Source of the DNA: a virus
Length of the DNA: 64,000 nt
Virus record (IMG/VR): IMGVR_UViG_3300045412_000547
Reading direction: 5' to 3' (one strand)
Part shown: one piece after another, positions 11,254 to 54,157 of the stretch
Position numbering within the stretch: the first letter of the stretch is position 1
How the letters are laid out: every line of letters starts with the position of its first letter
Position numbers and translations under genes: made by a program
Notes under the pieces: generated by a model
Told to the model about the DNA's origin: nothing
Seen by the model: the letters and a program-made list of their open reading frames with translations, nothing else
Database searches by the model: none

Positions 11254-14200
11254 TAGTAATTTAATATATTTATTGTGCCTATCATATTGCTATGCACTGT
11301 GCACTGATAAAAAATAACATTAGGTGTACCGCTTGTAGGAGTGAATAATACTCTACCACTTGTTTTACCATTAACAATATCGTTATTATAAGTACCGTTT
11401 ACAGGATTTGTTGTATCACCACTTGCGTTTCTCAGAGCAAACGGATGACCTCCTAGATTAAGTATAAAATCATAATTTGTTCCACGGTAACAAGTAAGTG
11501 TGGGATTATTAGTTCCAAATTGTGAAATGTTATAGTATTGTCCAGGAGCAGAAACAGTTAAAGGCACAAAACTCGCAATATAAGTACTATTCACAATAGG
11601 TAATGTAACCGTTGGCGTGGGTGTGGGTGTAACCGGTAAACCAGATGCTGTGGGTGTAGGTGTAATATTGATGCAGGCCGAGCTGGTGGCCGAAGTGGGC
11701 TTACCTCCAAGAGTGCCTGTAAACCCAGAGCTAGTCGGGCAGTAGTAAATCGTCAGGTTAACGTGGGTGCCAGAGAAAACATTATTCCCCACCGTGGGAG
11801 CATTGCCCTGCATGGTGATGCTGGTAAGGCTGGTGCAGCCTTGGAACGCAGCATACCCAATGCTGGTCACGCTGTTGGGGATGGTGATGCTGGCAAGGCT
11901 GGTGCAACTAGCGAACACATAACCCCCAATGCTGGTCACACCGCTACCGATGGTGACGCTGGTAAGGCTGGAGCAATTTTCGAACGTCTGAGACCCAATG
12001 CTTCTCACGCCGCTACCGATGGTGACGCTGGCGAGGCCGGTGCAACTTTGGAACGCATAATCCCCAATGCTGGTCACGCTGTCGGGGATGATGATGCTGG
12101 TAAGGCCGGTACAATGAAAGAACGCAAAAATCCCAATGCTGGTCACGCTGGTGGGGATGGTGATGCTGGAAAAGCTGCAACCAGCGAACGCATTATTCCC
12201 AATGCTTCTCACGCCGCTACCGATGGTGACGCTGGCAAGGCTATTGCAACTAGAGAACGCATAATCCCCTATGCTGGTCACGCTGTCGGGGATGGTGATG
12301 CTGGCAAGGCTGCGGCAATTATAGAACGCATAAGTCCCAATGCTGGTCACGCTGTTGGGAATGGTGATGCTGGCAAGGCTGATGCAATTATAGAACACCC
12401 AACCCCCAATGCTAGTCACGCTGTCGGGGATGGTGACACTGGCAAGGCTGAAGCAACCAGAGAACGCTTCATTCCCAATGCTGGTCACATATAAACCAAT
12501 TTTTACAGCGGTTAAAGTTTTGTTGACGTTCCAGCTAGACTTGTACAACACCGTATCACTGCTGGTGCTGGTGGTTCCATCACTGTAATAAAAAATAGTC
12601 ACAGATGATGTACGGGTGGGGGTTAATGTTGGTGTGCTAGTAGGAGTTGGCGTGGGTGTGGGTGTAACCGGTAAACCAGATGCTGTGGGTGTAGGTGTAA
12701 TATTGATGCAGGCCGAGCTGGTGGCCGAAGTGGGCTTACCTCCAAGAGTGCCTGTAAACCCAGAGCTAGTCGGGCAGTAGTAAATCGTCAGGTTAACGTG
12801 GGTGTTATAGAAAACATTATTCCCCACCGTGGGAGCATTGCCCTGCATGGTGATGCTGGTAAGGCTGGAGCAGCCTTGGAACGCACCATACCCAATGCTG
12901 GTCACGCTGTTGGGGATGGTGATGCTGGCAAGGCTGGTGCAACTAACGAACGCATAACCCCCAATGCTGGTCACGCCGCTACCGATGGTGACGCTGGTAA
13001 GGCTGGAGCAACCAGTGAACGCACTATTCCCAATGCTGGTCACGCCGCTACCGATGGTGACGCTGGTAAGGCTGGTGCAATTATTGAACGCAATATCCCC
13101 AATGCTGGTCACGCTGTCGGGGATGGTGATGCTGGTAAGGCTGGAGCAATATTCGAACGCATGATGCCCAATGCTGGTCACGCTGTTGGGGATGGTGATG
13201 CTGGAAAGGCTGGTGCAATAAGAGAACGCCTCCGACCCAATGCTAGTCACGCTGTTGGGGATGGTGATGCTGACAAGGCTGAAGCAACCAGAGAACGCTT
13301 CATTCCCAATGCTGGTCACATATAAACCAATTTTTACAGCGGTTAAAGTTTTGTTGACGTTCCAGCTAGACTTGTACAACACCGTATCACTGCTGGTGCT
13401 GGTGGTTCCATCACTGTAATAGAAAATAGTCACAGATGATGTACGGGTTGGTGTAGGTGTTATTGTAGGTGTAGGTGTTATGGTGGGTGTAGGTGTAATA
13501 TTGATGCAGGCTGAGTCGTCGGGCACGGTGGGCTTACCTCCAAGAGTGTCTGTAAACCCAGAGCTAGTCGGGCAGTAGTAAATCGTCAGGTTAACGTGGG
13601 TGCTTGAGAAAGCGCCATCCCCCACCGTGGGGGCATTCCCCTGCATGGTGATGCTAGTAAGGCTAGTGCAATTAAAGAACGCATAATCCCCAATGCTGGT
13701 CACGCTGTTGGGGATGGTGACGCTGGCAAGGCTGGTGCAATTAAAGAACGCAAAATTCCCAATGCTGGTCACGCTGTCGGGGATGGTGACGCTGGCAAGG
13801 CTGGTGCAACCATAGAACGCACTATACCCAATGCTGGTCACGCTGTTGGGGATGGTGATGCTGGTAAGGCTGGAGCAATTTCTGAACGCACCATACCCAA
13901 GGCTGGTCACATATAAACCAATTTCTACAGCGGTTAAAGTTTTGTTGATGTTCCTGCTGGAATCTAACAACACCGTATCACTGCTGGTGCTGGTGGTTCC
14001 ATCACTGTAATAGAAAATAGTCACAGATGATGTACGGGTGGGGGTTAATGTTGGTGTGCTAGTAGGAGTTGGCGTGGGTGTTGGTGTAGCAGGATTGCCC
14101 GATAATGTTGGCGTGGGTGTAGTAGGATTGCCCGATAATGTTGGCGTGGGTGTAGTAGGATTGCCCGATAATGTAACCGAAGGAGTTGGTGTGGGTGTAG

Positions 14201-22626: not shown

Positions 22627-23103
22627 TTAGTTAAATATAAACCCCGAATTACTTAATGTGCCTGGTATAGTAATGCCTGCTATTTTCATACGTGGAGCTG
22701 TAATAGTAAGCAAAATATAATACTGTTGATTTTCTTCATCAGGAATAACCTTGAGTGATTCTATTGAAACTCTATCTATTTCATATATTCCAATACCCCT
22801 TCGTATTTCCTGACCTATACTCTCAGCTACATTCATTGATATGGGTTCAAACAAGTAACGCGATAGACCTATCCCAAAATCTGGATTTAAGAGCTTTTGA
22901 CCTGGAAATGTATTAAAAAGATTAAAAAGTGACGATTTTATGGCACCTAAATCATATAATGCTTTTAAATCTTTAATTTCATCCTTTTTTAATAATTGAT
23001 TGTTTTTTGTAAATTGATATTCTAAATCTAGCTTTATATCGCTGTAAGTAAAGTTCTTAAATGTTTTTGTCGGTGCTTTAACAGATAGTATCTTGATAGC
23101 CAT
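22627..23103 (-). CDS. gp25: Baseplate wedge subunit (T4 gp25-like)
   Basis: AIKSSLFNLFNT.PG.KLLNPDFG.GL..YLFEP. Confidence 0.9.
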   Translation of the reverse strand: MAIKILSVKAPTKTFKNFTYSDIKLDLEYQFTKNNQLLKKDEIKDLKALYDLGAIKSSLFNLFNTFPGQKLLNPDFGIGLSRYLFEPISMNVAESIGQEIRRGIGIYEIDRVSIESLKVIPDEENQQYYILLTITAPRMKIAGITIPGTLSNSGFIFN

Positions 23104-48775: not shown

Positions 48776-49159
48776 TTAATTAGGCTCTTTTTTAAGATAA
48801 AAAAGGGCGTCTTTTAAAAGTTGTTCAATTTTTTCCAACGTCGCGGCTATTTTATATAAACTATCAACTATTTTACCAGAATCATCAGAACCAACTCTAG
48901 GAGCTACCATAATTTGAGGTTGAGTTCGTATATTTGGTGCAGACGCACCAACAGAATTATGCTGAGGTATTCCTCGACTTTGACCTTGAGGCAAATTACG
49001 AATAATTTCTTCCGCTTTTAAATTGAGTCCCTGAAGAGTGGGGTTTTTATTAACAATGTGGCTATCTAATTGTTTTAAATCGCCTAAATTTTGCCCCATA
49101 AACTGAAGCGTAGCCAAACGTATCTCTTCTGGTGTAGATTCTCTAAAAGCGTCGCTCAT
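48776..49159 (-). CDS. Hypothetical protein
   Basis: Translationally coupled between gp32 and gp45. Confidence 0.55.
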   Translation of the reverse strand: MSDAFRESTPEEIRLATLQFMGQNLGDLKQLDSHIVNKNPTLQGLNLKAEEIIRNLPQGQSRGIPQHNSVGASAPNIRTQPQIMVAPRVGSDDSGKIVDSLYKIAATLEKIEQLLKDALFYLKKEPN

Positions 49160-50031
49160 TACTCATCGAGTTCTTTAAGAAGATTATTAATAGAATCATC
49201 TGTCAAGTCATCTTCTTGCTGCTTTTTAGAAGCCTTGGGTTCTGGTGCAGAAGACCTTTTAACAGATTTGACTTCTGTAACAATTTGAGGAACCTCAACG
49301 GCAGCAGTTACTTCTTCTATCGCATCTTCTTTACAATAGTAATGTTGGTTAAATAAAGTCTTAAGCTCGTCGTATGTTTTAGCACTCACGTAAGACTCTA
49401 AATCAAATACTCCTTTATAAATTTTATCATAATCAGCTTCATCCAGTCCTTCAATTTCCTTAGGAGATTGAAACTTAGAAGAAACATAAGTAGGATAGTC
49501 TCCTTGCTTTTCTACTTTAATTTTTAAGCTGCAACCTTTAGAAGACAAGTCAAAAATGCGCGGGCCAAATTCTTCTGCATCTTCTCCCTCTATAGCATCC
49601 ATGATAATTTTATGGAGTTGTTTACCAAACCGAATTAACTTAGTTTTACCGTTGTTATCAGAGTTAACAGGGTCGTTAATAACATAAGTATTAACTAACC
49701 AGTTTTCTCTTCTCAAAATAACGGACATCTTTTTCTTTTCCTCATCACTACCATTGCGCAAAACACGGTAGCGCTCTTCACCAATCGGATCACGTTGACC
49801 CCAGGTAGAAGGGCTTACAAATGTTACTAACTGGCCGGTGCTATAGCTATTCCATCCATAAGAATAATAGTGAAAAAACGTCTTTGAGGGGTCCTTTATA
49901 TTAGGCAATAAACGAACTGTGTATATATTGCCCACCTCTGTCCTTAGGAAGTCTCTAGTACGAGAAGCTGTTGTTTCTTTAGTTAAAGCAGACTTAATGC
50001 TTTCAAACATTGAATTGGTAAATGTACTCAT
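49159..50031 (-). CDS. gp32: Single-stranded DNA-binding protein
   Basis: VRLLP, DPIGE, N.YVINDP...DNNGK, FGK, FDL..G..KIKV, Y.SSKF, acidic tail. Confidence 0.9.
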   Translation of the reverse strand: MSTFTNSMFESIKSALTKETTASRTRDFLRTEVGNIYTVRLLPNIKDPSKTFFHYYSYGWNSYSTGQLVTFVSPSTWGQRDPIGEERYRVLRNGSDEEKKKMSVILRRENWLVNTYVINDPVNSDNNGKTKLIRFGKQLHKIIMDAIEGEDAEEFGPRIFDLSSKGCSLKIKVEKQGDYPTYVSSKFQSPKEIEGLDEADYDKIYKGVFDLESYVSAKTYDELKTLFNQHYYCKEDAIEEVTAAVEVPQIVTEVKSVKRSSAPEPKASKKQQEDDLTDDSINNLLKELDE

Positions 50032-50037
50032 ATTAAA

Positions 50038-50065
50038 ATTTTATAATGAGCAACACCTAATTCAA
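50038..50065 (-). promoter_or_regulatory. Early/middle sigma70-like promoter (gp32)
   Basis: TTGAAT-N16-TAAAAT-N6-ATG. Confidence 0.75.
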
Positions 50066-50712
50066 GCGTTATTTTTAATTTTTTTATAGGCATAAGAACA
50101 GAGTAATTTGGCTTTTCTCGAGACAATATATTTTGTTCTAAAAATTTCTATTTTTGAATAAAAATCTTTACCTAGCATAAACTCTAAAACCTCGGGCCCC
50201 ACCAATCTTATGTTGCGAATTGTGTCTTTGAATTCTAATAAAGAATAAAAATTGATTTTATGCTCTTGTAAATGAAGTAAAAAAGAAAACATGTTGTTTG
50301 TTCTATGGTTTACATAGCTGTCTACATTAATATTTTGCTCGCTGCAAAACTGTTTAATAAACTTAAATGATTTTAAAATATTTTTAAGTTGTTGTTTTTC
50401 GTCTGGATCCAAGAGCTCGTTTTTCTTCAAAAGTGTAGTATAGGCGTTAATCGCTTTAAGACTGATATAATAATCCAATCCAAAATAATTTTCATCTTGG
50501 TAAAGTTCATAAGGTGCTTTAAAAAAGCTTTGAACGTCAATGTGTTTAAAACGATTGAAAAAATTTGACAGTTTTTTTAAATAAACATATTCTTTTTTAT
50601 CTAATAACTCCGCAAAATTTTTTCTATTTTTGTAAGGTTTGCCGTTACGAGAGACCCTTAAAAAAGTATTGTAAATATACTTTTCAAAATCAGAAAATTC
50701 TAGTACCGCCAT
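50062..50712 (-). CDS. Putative helicase loader (gp59-like)
   Basis: Basic 216-aa protein immediately upstream of gp32, as in T4; F....EYVYLKKLS.FF. Confidence 0.5.
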   Translation of the reverse strand: MAVLEFSDFEKYIYNTFLRVSRNGKPYKNRKNFAELLDKKEYVYLKKLSNFFNRFKHIDVQSFFKAPYELYQDENYFGLDYYISLKAINAYTTLLKKNELLDPDEKQQLKNILKSFKFIKQFCSEQNINVDSYVNHRTNNMFSFLLHLQEHKINFYSLLEFKDTIRNIRLVGPEVLEFMLGKDFYSKIEIFRTKYIVSRKAKLLCSYAYKKIKNNA

Positions 50713-50903
50713 TTGTAACGAGCGAATTCTTTTTTGACACGCTTTTTAACACTTGGCTTGTATCCATATTTAAAAAACCGAATTGTTTCTAATACTAAAG
50801 ACTTTTGAACCTCACGAGCAAACTTGTTGTATTTTCTTGCAAAATAATCCTTATCTAGGGATTTCTTTCTATCTAGCGTTATTTCTGCGTTTACGTTAAT
50901 CAT
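50700..50903 (-). CDS. rpsU: Phage-encoded 30S ribosomal protein bS21 (divergent)
   Basis: 67 aa and very basic; F.RKY.KF.REVQKS.VLE.IR..KY.YKPSVKKR.KK..AR matches the bS21 pattern. Confidence 0.8.
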   Translation of the reverse strand: MINVNAEITLDRKKSLDKDYFARKYNKFAREVQKSLVLETIRFFKYGYKPSVKKRVKKEFARYKWRY

Positions 50904-51181
50904 AGTAGTGCTTTTTTGTTTGCGTTAAGATATTTCATTATATATTTACTCTTATATAATCCAGTATCAAATTGTAAAAAGCTTTTTACGGCAAGATAAT
51001 CATTTTCAAAATCACAATATTCTTTAAACAAAATTCTTACGTTTGAATTCTGTAAAAGAAGTAAAAATATGTTTGCTAGATTCATTTTTTTAGTTTGTAG
51101 TAAACTTATTAAAGTACAAAAAGAGTAAAACAAATGATTAAACTCATATGCTGTGATTGAATAGGAGGGGTCTACTTTCAT
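50900..51181 (-). CDS. Hypothetical protein
   Basis: 4-nt overlaps with both neighbours. Confidence 0.55.
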   Translation of the reverse strand: MKVDPSYSITAYEFNHLFYSFCTLISLLQTKKMNLANIFLLLLQNSNVRILFKEYCDFENDYLAVKSFLQFDTGLYKSKYIMKYLNANKKALL

Positions 51182-52092
51182 TTACAGGCCTCCAGCTTTT
51201 TACTAAAAGTTAAAAATTCTTCATTGATAAATCCACCGCCTATATTTTTAGTTCCACCGCCTTTGAAATTCGTTTTTGTAAAGTTACCAATATGAAGATT
51301 ATCGTTTTTGTTTTTATCTTTTCTTAAGCTTATATATTTTGTATTTAAATTTACTACAATAGCTATATCGCCATTGTGTTTTTCTAAAATATAGTGGGCA
51401 ACTTCACTGGGAGCCGTATTCGTAAATGTACTAACTACTTTGTAGTTTAAATTTTTATATTCAGTATTTGTTTTGAATACTGTTAAACCTTCTAATACTT
51501 TATTTAAATTTTCTTTGTAAAACTTAATTAAATTTTTATGCTGCTGGGTAAACACTGTAAAGCCATTTTTAAAATCATTGTAAAATTTTTCTATTCTATC
51601 ACCCTGATAGCTCCAAAATAAAAAATTAAGATCTTTTGACAGGGGATGTTTTAAATTGTAGCTGTCGTAGTCGTTAACAAGAGATATTAAAAGTTTTTGT
51701 TGTTCGGTAAGAATGTCTCCGTATTTATCTTTTAATCTTTTATAAAGCATTAAAGCACAGCTTGAGCTATTTTCGGTTATAATTTTAGCATTTTTAAATT
51801 TTTTTATATCATCAGGGTCATCTTCACCGTGGTTAATGTATGTTAAATTAGGAAGATCGGCAATATCTTCATTTTTATTTAAAATAGATAAATCAAAAAT
51901 ATAAATTTTTTTAAAACTTTCCGCTTTATTATTTTTTAAAAAATTTTCAAAATCTTTTCTAAATGTTTTTTCCGTACAAGATTTATATGGGCATATAAGC
52001 TTTGTATACCATCTAAATACAGAGTAGCAGCATGCACCGTCGAGATCTGCATCTGTAAAAATAAAGATATTGTCAATAGGCTTTTCTGCCAT
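51178..52092 (-). CDS. DHH/DHHA1-family phosphoesterase with degenerate motifs
   Basis: DADLDG, IFDL, INHG in place of DHH, NDYD, SLR, GGGT in place of GGGH. Confidence 0.75.
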   Translation of the reverse strand: MAEKPIDNIFIFTDADLDGACCYSVFRWYTKLICPYKSCTEKTFRKDFENFLKNNKAESFKKIYIFDLSILNKNEDIADLPNLTYINHGEDDPDDIKKFKNAKIITENSSSCALMLYKRLKDKYGDILTEQQKLLISLVNDYDSYNLKHPLSKDLNFLFWSYQGDRIEKFYNDFKNGFTVFTQQHKNLIKFYKENLNKVLEGLTVFKTNTEYKNLNYKVVSTFTNTAPSEVAHYILEKHNGDIAIVVNLNTKYISLRKDKNKNDNLHIGNFTKTNFKGGGTKNIGGGFINEEFLTFSKKLEACK

Positions 52093-52097
52093 AAATT

Positions 52098-52125
52098 TAT
52101 TTAGTTTTTAACTTATAAAAATCAA
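52098..52125 (-). promoter_or_regulatory. Hybrid promoter for the DHH-hyp-bS21-gp59 operon
   Basis: TTGATT-N16-TAAATA-N5-ATG (early-type -35 combined with a late-type box). Confidence 0.6.
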
Positions 52126-52127
52126 TT

Positions 52128-53453
52128 CTAATTATTTGAAAGTGAAGCAAGTGTATTGATAGTTGATGCACTTGCTTCCGTATCATTAACATGTTCATCT
52201 TCTGAAATAGTTAAAGTACTGTAATCTATACGCATAATACAATGACCGAAATTTGCTCCAAATCTATTCTTCATTATGCCGAGTTTTATAACACCTAGCT
52301 CTCTGTCTGTATCTTCTTGCCAAATACTCATTATAACATCAGCTGTAGCTGCTAGACCCATGCTTTCGGAAATTGTATTAAGACCGGGATCTGTAGTATT
52401 ATAACCTTCACGGTTTAATTGAGTGGCGCTAACTATAGGGCAATTAAAGACGTAGCTTAATGCTCTTAGTTGCTCTGTACAGTATTTTATACGTTCATAG
52501 GTATTGTTACCGAGCGTAGTATGTAAAAGATTAATGTAATCGAGTATAATTGCATCAATTTTCAATCCTTTGCTTGTAAGTTTTTTAATAAATGCTTTAA
52601 GATGATTTGTGGTAACTGTAGATGGTGGAAACTCTTTTATAAGAATTTTTGCGCCTGGTTTTTCTACTGTATAGCCTTCAATAGTATTTTTTAAAGTTAT
52701 ACATTCTGGTTTTAAGTGATTGAAGGGTATTTTAGTAATATTTGTAAAGAGACGTTTTGCATATACCATTTCAGGCATTTCAAGAGTTATGAGTAATACT
52801 GTTTTATTTTGACTTGCAATATTCACCGCAGCGTTACCAAGAAAAATACTTTTACCGATATTTGTTTCACCTGCAAATACATAGATCGATCTGCCAGATT
52901 CTAAAAAACCTCCACCGAGCCTGTCATCAAGCCATTTCCATTTACTAGAAATATAATTGTCCTCCTTATTAAGATCATCAATAACCTTATCAACATCAGG
53001 AAAGAGATCTAATCCGGTATCTGTTGCAAGGCTTATATTACATGCTTTTTCAAACTTACTTAGAACGGCTGATGTATCCACACTGTTTTTTCCAATATCA
53101 TCCACCACATCCATCATTGTATGATAAACTGCTTTTTCTTTTAAAAATGTTTCGGTGTTACTGTATAGTTCATCAACATTAAATTTTTTGTCTAAATCTA
53201 AAAAACTATTAGCAACGTTTTTAAAAGATTTTTTTAAATTATCGGTATCTAGATAAGTTTTTATTTCTGTTAATGTCGGTTTTGTTCCGCGCTTCGTATA
53301 AAAATCTTTTATAATAGAATAGATGTTTTTATTATCTGTATTTTTAAGGTACTTTAAATTAATATAATCAATAACAGAAGAAAGATATAATTCATCCGTT
53401 AAGCATTTATAAACAATAACCGTTTCAAAAAAATCTAGGTCTAGTTTTGCCAT
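52128..53453 (-). CDS. gp41: Replicative DnaB-like helicase
   Basis: AGETNIGKS, LITLEM, IKEFP, ILDYINL, SATQLNR, ISESMG, KNRFG. Confidence 0.95.
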   Translation of the reverse strand: MAKLDLDFFETVIVYKCLTDELYLSSVIDYINLKYLKNTDNKNIYSIIKDFYTKRGTKPTLTEIKTYLDTDNLKKSFKNVANSFLDLDKKFNVDELYSNTETFLKEKAVYHTMMDVVDDIGKNSVDTSAVLSKFEKACNISLATDTGLDLFPDVDKVIDDLNKEDNYISSKWKWLDDRLGGGFLESGRSIYVFAGETNIGKSIFLGNAAVNIASQNKTVLLITLEMPEMVYAKRLFTNITKIPFNHLKPECITLKNTIEGYTVEKPGAKILIKEFPPSTVTTNHLKAFIKKLTSKGLKIDAIILDYINLLHTTLGNNTYERIKYCTEQLRALSYVFNCPIVSATQLNREGYNTTDPGLNTISESMGLAATADVIMSIWQEDTDRELGVIKLGIMKNRFGANFGHCIMRIDYSTLTISEDEHVNDTEASASTINTLASLSNN

Positions 53454-53470
53454 GTTACGTAAATAGTTAT

Positions 53471-54157
53471 TCAAGAGTATTCTTGAATAAACTTTTCCTG
53501 GCTCTGCAAAAATGAACTGTCGCCCGGATTTAAAAGACCGGGTGAACTATGTACCGCCCAAATAGGTGTTACACCGAGTTTTAATTTTTTGTTATTTGCA
53601 TCTATGCTACTTGCTATATCATAATGATGAAATTTATAGTTTTCGTTGAATTTCCAGTTTGTTTCAATAACTCGCTTACAATTTATACTTAAAAATAGGC
53701 CGTCTAAAATAGTAACGCGAGCGGGAGTTGGTCCAAAGCATGTCATAAGAATTTGATTATCTTGATGCAGTAAAGATGCTGGGTGGGCAACTGCTCCTCT
53801 TAAATTCCCACTACCAAAACCACCGCACATTAGATGCCATAAAGCTGGTTTTGCAACAACTGGATTAATACCACCGGCGAGTCCAACGATATCGTAATCT
53901 TTGTGGGCTTGTATTAGTTTTTCACAAATGTTTGCATCATCAACTATCAAGTCATCATGTAAGAAAATAATATAATCAAATTCGTTTTTGTAATTTTTTA
54001 GAATTTGATTATAGTTTTCGCTTAACCCTTTTTCATTATTAAAATCATAAAAAAGCTTAAATTTAAAAAGAGCTTTTTTAAAAATCTTATTTAAAGATTG
54101 ATAGGTTAAAGTATCTTCAGCTTTTTTACGAGTACAAAAATAGAAAGCAAATTTCAT
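53471..54157 (-). CDS. GT-A fold (family-2-like) glycosyltransferase
   Basis: GLS..YN..L, IIFLHDDL (DxD-like), DIVGLAG, LDGLFL, F.E...FHHYD. Confidence 0.8.
   Translation of the reverse strand: MKFAFYFCTRKKAEDTLTYQSLNKIFKKALFKFKLFYDFNNEKGLSENYNQILKNYKNEFDYIIFLHDDLIVDDANICEKLIQAHKDYDIVGLAGGINPVVAKPALWHLMCGGFGSGNLRGAVAHPASLLHQDNQILMTCFGPTPARVTILDGLFLSINCKRVIETNWKFNENYKFHHYDIASSIDANNKKLKLGVTPIWAVHSSPGLLNPGDSSFLQSQEKFIQEYS

Follow-up and report, generated by a model that had tools for sequence, protein, structure and literature searches.

Why would a phage whose genes appear to be read without Shine-Dalgarno (SD) sequences carry its own copy of bS21, the ribosomal protein that supports and positions the anti-SD (preprint PMC10491246)? 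This question is raised by a gene in a stretch of viral DNA of 64,000 nucleotides (IMG/VR record IMGVR_UViG_3300045412_000547), called the window below. The window comes from an uncultured phage, a distant T4-like myovirus of ~30-33% GC, and the gene in question is the following.

50700..50903, minus strand: bS21 gene, an open reading frame (ORF) of 67 amino acids whose protein ends ...KPSVKKRVKKEFARYKWRY, with KPS at residues 49-51, Y63 and K64-W65

The explanation towards which we lean, and which we regard as somewhat probable, is that this phage bS21 enters the ribosome and favours the SD-less messages of the phage. Below we set out the identity and phage restriction of the protein and the start architecture of the phage genes, and then weigh this explanation against its alternatives.

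Identity of the bS21 gene

The 67-residue protein carries the hallmarks of bS21: it is small, basic and predicted to be helical, and it contains the KPS motif, of which P50 and S51 are invariant in its clade and K49 is found in 7 of 8 members. An AlphaFold2 (AF2) model predicts three helices (residues 18-35, 37-45 and 50-66; mean pLDDT 75), language-model features in the ESM Atlas point to bS21 clusters, and four of its five weak matches in the PDB are bS21. Clade relatives (31-65% identity) exceed the 27-bit cut-off of the Pfam family PF01165, with scores of 35.3 (P0003), 32.3 (P0004), 32.8 (P0005), 34.0 (P0007) and 31.4 bits (P0008). Furthermore, all 36 matches at E<=1 of an eight-member clade profile to the PDB are bS21, bS21c or bS21m, the best at E=5e-7. 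Purifying selection acts on the gene, which has a pN of 0.12 versus a pS of 0.80 in comparison with the L003 copy. Since the clade relatives pass Pfam and the clade profile finds bS21 only, these comparisons identify the ORF as a genuine but very divergent bS21 homologue, kept by selection, and the assignment made in a preliminary description of the window is upheld.

A clade found in phage-type gene contexts

Relatives of the protein are few. A word-indexed search of 5.8 billion proteins returned three, and an exhaustive profile search of 1.84 billion representatives returned 10 matches at E<=0.001, with no close cellular relative among these representatives. A tblastn search of 50,697 phage records with the window protein gave no match, and the same search with the clade member P0010 found one Vibrio phage. 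An IMG/VR fragment carries a bS21 identical to the window copy. Six of the seven clade-level matches could be placed on contigs, all six in T4-like phage gene contexts, and the clade is so far found only in phage-type gene contexts. Two parts of the protein are specific to the clade: an N-terminal region that is ~9 residues longer, and an invariant Lys-Trp (K64 and W65) followed by Tyr at the extreme C-terminus, where Y67/Y68 are common.

The position of bS21 within the replication module is fixed in six of seven lineages (the window, L004, L007, L010, L011 and L015). Five relatives share the gene order GATase, glycosyltransferase, gp41, a DHH-like gene (in most), ORF93, bS21, ORF216/225 and gp32, and ORF93, bS21 and ORF216/225 occur together in all syntenic loci. 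A more distant clade member with a KW-KYY C-terminus (L013/L014, 2729-2935) adjoins a gp15-like tail gene and has a promoter of its own, TATAAT-N5-ATG.

SD-free, promoter-adjacent gene starts

Start architecture was counted for the 58 genes of the window. In 21 genes the end of a TAAAT[AT] box lies 3-8 nt ahead of the start, and in 13 of these the distance is exactly 5 nt, compared to ~0.17 expected per position. In 8 more genes TTGAWT-N14-18-TAWWWT ends 4-7 nt before the start, giving 29 promoter-adjacent genes. Most of the remaining genes (24 of 29) are separated from the upstream gene by a gap of <=3 nt or overlap it. SD-like cores precede 4 of the 58 genes, with a background of 6.9%, and duplex energy to the anti-SD is the same at window starts as at random positions. 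Related loci have an SD-core fraction of 3%. Promoter-adjacent starts consist of 23 ATG, 6 GTG and 0 TTG codons, and this purine-only set fits transcription that would begin on the start-codon purine. The DNA polymerase gene is among the six with GTG. The TTG starts at 23093, 48775 and 53474 are not promoter-adjacent; two abut or overlap a neighbour, and the third is not preceded by any listed gene on its strand.

The end of a sigma70 -10 element is ~6-7 nt ahead of +1, and the T4 TATAAATA box occupies roughly positions -13 to -6. Given this geometry, the box-to-start spacings predict 5' untranslated regions of 0-2 nt. The window phage is thus predicted to be SD-free, with genes that are leaderless or translationally coupled, as the preliminary description had proposed and as the counts bear out at the sequence level, and this in the early and late classes alike. 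Leaderless phage units are known, such as lambda cI from pRM and the middle and late genes of Thermus phage P23-45. These resemble the window in having a -10 element directly before the start codon and a predicted 5'-terminal AUG/GUG. They differ from it in extent: in the window the pattern is predicted, from sequence alone, to span both the early sigma70-type and the late TAAATA classes, without SD.

The bS21 operon and its promoter

The bS21 gene belongs to an operon of four overlapping genes located between the helicase and gp32 genes.

52128..53474, minus strand: gp41-type DnaB-like replicative helicase, the upstream neighbour of the bS21 operon
52098..52125, minus strand: predicted operon promoter, TTGATT at 52125-52120, N16, TAAATA at 52103-52098, N5, ATG at 52092
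51178..52092, minus strand: first operon gene, 304 aa, with a weak DHH-like N-terminus (PF01368, E=0.0012, below cut-off)
50900..51181, minus strand: ORF93, a conserved helical protein with no family match; its stop overlaps the bS21 start (ATGA)
50062..50712, minus strand: ORF216, a conserved protein between bS21 and gp32; it begins inside bS21, sharing its final 13 nt
49159..50031, minus strand: gp32 single-stranded DNA-binding protein, with its own promoter TTGAAT-N14/16-TATAAAAT, which ends 6 nt before the ATG

The first gene and ORF93 are also joined by an ATGA overlap (51178-52092/50900-51181), as are ORF93 and bS21 (50900-51181/50700-50903), and bS21 and ORF216 share the 13 nt (50700-50903/50062-50712). 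The five syntenic relatives likewise have ORF93 immediately before bS21, with an overlap of 4-11 nt at the bS21 start.

The TAAATA of this operon had been described as a late-type box. It is instead the -10 of a promoter whose -35, TTGATT at 52120-52125, lies 16 nt upstream. Each of the five relatives examined also has a TTGATT-like hexamer (TTGATT, TTGACT or TTGCTT) ahead of the operon, with a -35/-10 spacing of 14-16 nt in four of them and an ambiguous one in L010. Because its TAAATA has a conserved -35, the operon promoter looks to be of the early sigma70 type, as for other replication genes, and not a pure late promoter. The predicted transcription start of the operon coincides with the start codon at 52092 or is no more than 1-2 nt away from it. 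Structural genes mostly have (A/T)TAAATA(A/T) with no TTGA upstream, which is a TATAAATA-like late box. Neither gp55 nor gp33 was recognised among the small ORFs scanned in the 64-kb window.

Several further observations concern the neighbours of bS21. A perfect GGAGG stands 7 nt before the ATG of ORF93 (51182-51200, minus strand), and no other of the 58 genes has as strong a match to the anti-SD (dG -9.3). Flavobacterium rpsU has a strong SD for autoregulation, whereas the GGAGG of ORF93 is not conserved: it is absent from all five related loci, and we rejected rpsU-like autoregulation in favour of incidental coding sequence. The ATG of window ORF216 sits within the Lys-Trp codons of bS21 (AAATGG, 50700-50712). 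In the relatives the downstream gene begins at the bS21 stop, so the overlap with ORF216 does not explain the invariance of Lys-Trp. The DHH-like first gene is absent in L010 (2276-2771), and a 104-aa ORF replaces it in L015 (4410-5246). The possibility that ORF93 or ORF216 is a divergent bS18 or bS6 found no support in Pfam, PHROGs and PDB profile searches. The AF2 model of ORF93 (pLDDT 81.5) had no match in Foldseek or the Atlas, and an hhalign comparison of ORF216 with gp59 of phage HTVC008M was not significant.

Y63 and anti-SD sequestration

The preliminary description had aligned the tyrosine at position 63 by eye with a tyrosine of Bacteroidota bS21, and had proposed that it occludes the anti-SD and thereby shuts off SD-led host mRNAs. 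In the Flavobacterium johnsoniae protein the KPS serine is S42 and the signature tyrosine is Y54, at +12 (Jha et al. 2021). This Tyr54 stacks on A1534, where the 16S tail diverts (Jha et al. 2021). The alignment was correct: S51+12 is Y63, the Tyr54-equivalent by numbering, and an ungapped profile match to 7jil_z (chain 10-52, profile 19-61) agrees. The F. johnsoniae bS21 (PDB 7JIL; Jha et al. 2021, McNutt et al. 2023) thus has in common with the window protein the fold family, KPS and the Tyr at S+12. However, its tail is much less basic than that of the window protein, and it acts together with a special bS18 and bS6.

The comparisons do not support the proposed occlusion. Across the eight clade members position 63 is Y, Y, L, L, N, F, Q and K, aromatic in the window protein, P0002 (Y) and P0006 (F). 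Of the 16 residues that follow S51, 8 are K/R and 1 is E, a composition similar to that of the Lactococcus tail, whereas the C-terminal tail of Bacteroidia bS21 is markedly less basic than in other phyla (Jha et al. 2021). Among the PDB matches of the clade profile, 7jil_z is only the 20th (E=4e-5), behind Lactococcus, E. coli, Staphylococcus and others. Moreover, the Bacteroidia anti-SD pocket requires Phe50, Asn56 and Lys37 of bS18 as well as Trp100 and Arg103 of bS6, and its interactions cannot form in E. coli or Thermus ribosomes (Jha et al. 2021). Profile searches of the neighbouring ORFs found no bS18- or bS6-like gene next to bS21. As these special bS18 and bS6 residues are also needed, a single phage protein is unlikely to create a Bacteroidia-type pocket in an SD-using host. 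The longer N-terminus and the C-terminal Lys-Trp/Tyr, rather than Y63, are the likely determinants of any altered behaviour.

A different situation was described for phages from lakes by Chen et al. 2022 (ISME Commun 2:31, PMC9723584), who suggested that phage bS21 with Tyr54 takes the place of the host protein in Bacteroidetes ribosomes, to the advantage of phage transcripts. The lake-phage and window proteins are alike in being phage-encoded, with a Tyr at the Tyr54-equivalent position in the window protein. The lake-phage genes have a late structural gene context, whereas the window gene is in the replication module behind an early-type promoter. In addition, the nearest relatives of the lake-phage proteins are Flavobacteriia bS21 and their position 54 is always aromatic, whereas the window clade has no close cellular relative and has not kept the aromatic residue.

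bS21 carriage and start architecture in T4-like phages

In the preliminary description the carriage of bS21 was linked to leaderless promoter spacing. To compare phages, we counted occurrences of TAAATA at a distance d upstream of an ATG or GTG with which an ORF of >=60 codons begins, and checked the presence of bS21 in the compared phages with PF01165. For each phage, the presence of bS21, the count at d=5 and the SD-core fraction are given.

Window (64 kb): bS21 yes; d=5 count 14; SD-core fraction 0.06
HTVC008M: bS21 yes; d=5 count 12; SD-core fraction 0.42
Mosig: bS21 yes; d=5 count 6; SD-core fraction 0.44
Melnitz: bS21 yes; d=5 count 4; SD-core fraction 0.46
S-SM2: bS21 no; d=5 count 2; SD-core fraction 0.21
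Syn9: bS21 no; d=5 count 1; SD-core fraction 0.22
P-SSM2: bS21 no; d=5 count 2; SD-core fraction 0.25
Cr30: bS21 no; d=5 count 0; SD-core fraction 0.32
C48C1: bS21 no; d=5 count 2; SD-core fraction 0.35
T4: bS21 no; d=5 count 4; SD-core fraction 0.54
RM378: bS21 no; d=5 count 1; SD-core fraction 0.15

Counts at d=5 were 4-14 in the four phages that encode bS21 and 0-4 in the seven that do not, ranges that overlap at 4, and the four represent about two independent bS21 lineages. The trend fits one half of the suggested link, with a d=5 peak in all four bS21 phages that is weaker in the pelagimyophages, but the other half is not borne out: because the bS21-encoding pelagimyophages use SD on 42-46% of their genes, bS21 carriage is not tied to SD-free coding. 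The pelagimyophages HTVC008M and Mosig and the OM43 phage Melnitz resemble the window phage in being T4-like, in encoding bS21 and in having a subset of genes with TAAATA-N5-start (12, 6 and 4 genes). Their SD cores show a clear positional peak, whereas SD in the window is at background.

In the whole genome of HTVC008M, 12 ORF starts lie exactly 5 nt after TAAATA, and five of those in the first 50 kb follow a full TATAAATA. Some late genes of pelagimyophages may thus lack leaders, even though 42% of HTVC008M genes have SD cores. Phage T4 has four ORF starts exactly 5 nt after TAAATA and none at 4, 6 or 7 nt. The bS21 of HTVC008M is unlike that of the window: it is a recent acquisition from the host (54% identical to the host's protein), has K at +12 and is preceded by an SD-like AAGGG. 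This protein enters E. coli 70S ribosomes (Mizuno et al. 2019).

Phage context and host signals

Besides gp41 and gp32, the recognised genes of the window include gp43 polymerase, UvsX, primase, a gp46-like SbcC, large terminase, sheath, tube and baseplate hub. Its core proteins are <=31% identical to their homologues in cyanophages, pelagiphages or Caulobacter phages. We searched for signals of the host. The 64-kb window contains no tRNAs, and a scan of GTDB genomes with a gp32 profile gave no match. A BspA-like leucine-rich repeat (LRR) module (11820-13910, minus strand), GC-rich at 52%, forms part of a 1079-aa tail-region protein. A scan with this module found BspA-like LRR proteins of <=54% identity in Bacillota, Bacteroidales and two Verrucomicrobiota metagenome-assembled genomes (Luteolibacter and Akkermansiaceae), an unspecific result.

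The promoter consensus of Bacteroidetes is TTTG / TAnnTTTG. Given this consensus, the canonical -35/-10 early promoters of the window, which are not of the Bacteroidetes type as for the lake-phage hosts, argue against a Bacteroidota host. The absence of SD, together with early, presumably leaderless messages that would be read before any phage protein is made, suggests that the host ribosomes initiate without SD.

Weighing the explanations

Building on the homology, selection, synteny, promoter and start geometry and SD absence described above, we infer the timing, ribosome incorporation and selectivity of the phage bS21 as follows. The gene would be transcribed from the early sigma70-type promoter, with 5 nt between its -10 hexamer and the first start codon, and translated by coupling through the ATGA overlaps; host RNA polymerase and ribosomes, both still unmodified, would produce the protein early in infection. 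The phage bS21 would then occupy the bS21 site on the 30S platform by the 16S rRNA 3' tail, replacing or supplementing the host protein, and initiation would shift towards SD-less phage messages, whether leaderless or coupled. That a bS21 swap into ribosomes favours phage mRNA is an already published idea (Mizuno 2019, Chen 2022), but none of the papers found in our literature searches connects phage bS21 with leaderless transcripts of phages. E. coli ribosomes that lack uS2 and bS21 have a repositioned anti-SD and handle the leaderless lambda cI mRNA better (preprint PMC10491246). On this ground bS21 and leaderless initiation appear to be mechanistically connected, but in the opposite sense to simply adding bS21. 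In Francisella, bS21 paralogues change the translation of specific genes (PMC9578407, PMC13374519). A narrower form of the proposal, which we find doubtful, is that the Lys-Trp-x-Tyr C-terminus and the extended N-terminus divert the 3' tail of 16S rRNA or change the path by which mRNA exits, and that ribosomes would consequently prefer 5'-terminal starts from early infection onwards. Several points weigh against a selective phage bS21. By itself, the window protein stays under the Pfam cut-off (PF01165: E=0.056, 13.6 bits) and that of TIGR00030 (E=0.16, 11.8 bits; cut-off 28.95). A Foldseek search with its model gave no match, and in a VIA structure search the top row, chain u of a chlororibosome (Z 4.8, root-mean-square deviation 3.8, 60 residues), was not above noise and tied with unrelated helical proteins, the query being small and helical. 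The basis for ribosome binding and changed initiation, both proposed here, is indirect. Furthermore, since the early genes, including the bS21 operon, are predicted to be equally leaderless, host ribosomes must be able to read leaderless mRNA unaided: these genes would be translated before phage bS21 exists, and bS21 would not be needed to enable leaderless translation. Finally, if the host is SD-independent, there would be nothing to discriminate against, a case that the preliminary description had itself set down as counting against its proposal.

It is this last possibility that leads to the alternative we take most seriously, although we consider it unlikely: the phage mirrors an SD-independent host, and its bS21 only completes 30S subunits, raises ribosome output or counters a withholding of bS21, with no selectivity. 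The predicted reading of early leaderless genes, the bS21 operon among them, by unmodified host ribosomes agrees with this, as does an SD fraction at background (0.06, and 0.03 in relatives) compared to 0.21-0.25 in cyanophages and 0.15 in RM378, which suggests a host-wide trait. Moreover, bS21 is described as late-assembling and dispensable, with its level regulating translation in Flavobacterium. Yet a plain supplement would be expected to be host-like, as is the HTVC008M copy, whereas the window clade is far from any cellular bS21, and its conserved N-terminal extension and KW-Y(Y) C-terminus suggest a changed function. Sequestration by Y63 stacking on A1534 as in Bacteroidia, with SD-led host mRNAs turned off and leaderless phage mRNAs still read, is improbable. 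The place of Y63 at the Tyr54-equivalent position, the SD-free and promoter-adjacent gene set and the effect of anti-SD position on leaderless mRNA in E. coli would all suit it. However, the residue is not conserved in the clade, as against an aromatic one in 61/61 phage bS21 of Chen et al., and the strongly basic tail is unlike the Bacteroidia signature. The low rank of 7jil_z, the missing pocket residues of bS18 and bS6 in ordinary hosts, the lack of homologues of these two proteins among the neighbouring genes and the dependence of bS21-encoding pelagimyophages on SD likewise speak against it. Very improbable, in our view, is exaptation, in which bS21 has left the ribosome and become a small basic nucleic-acid-binding factor of the replication module. 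Most clade members do lie between helicase and gp32, coupled to two conserved proteins, the window protein is very divergent, and bS21 has been reported within a non-ribosomal ribonucleoprotein (PMC12054373). Against this, the KPS core and the helix pattern of bS21 have been retained, and the L013/L014 gene, beside a tail gene and with its own promoter, is not bound to replication genes.

Implications

Phage bS21 is common in aquatic viruses, but an effect on translation has never been shown. The window offers a clean contrast to earlier cases: a bS21 that is so far found only in phage contexts and has diverged strongly from every cellular copy, in an SD-free genome with promoters abutting the starts of early and late genes. 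It also indicates that the Tyr54 signature of Bacteroidia cannot be read across to every phage bS21. Should the proposed shift towards leaderless initiation not be true, the window would still represent a T4-like lineage with a transcriptome predicted to be fully leaderless or coupled. If it is true, the phage would make a natural, virus-made specialised ribosome, which could also be used to examine how initiation modes are gated by bS21 and the 16S 3' tail.

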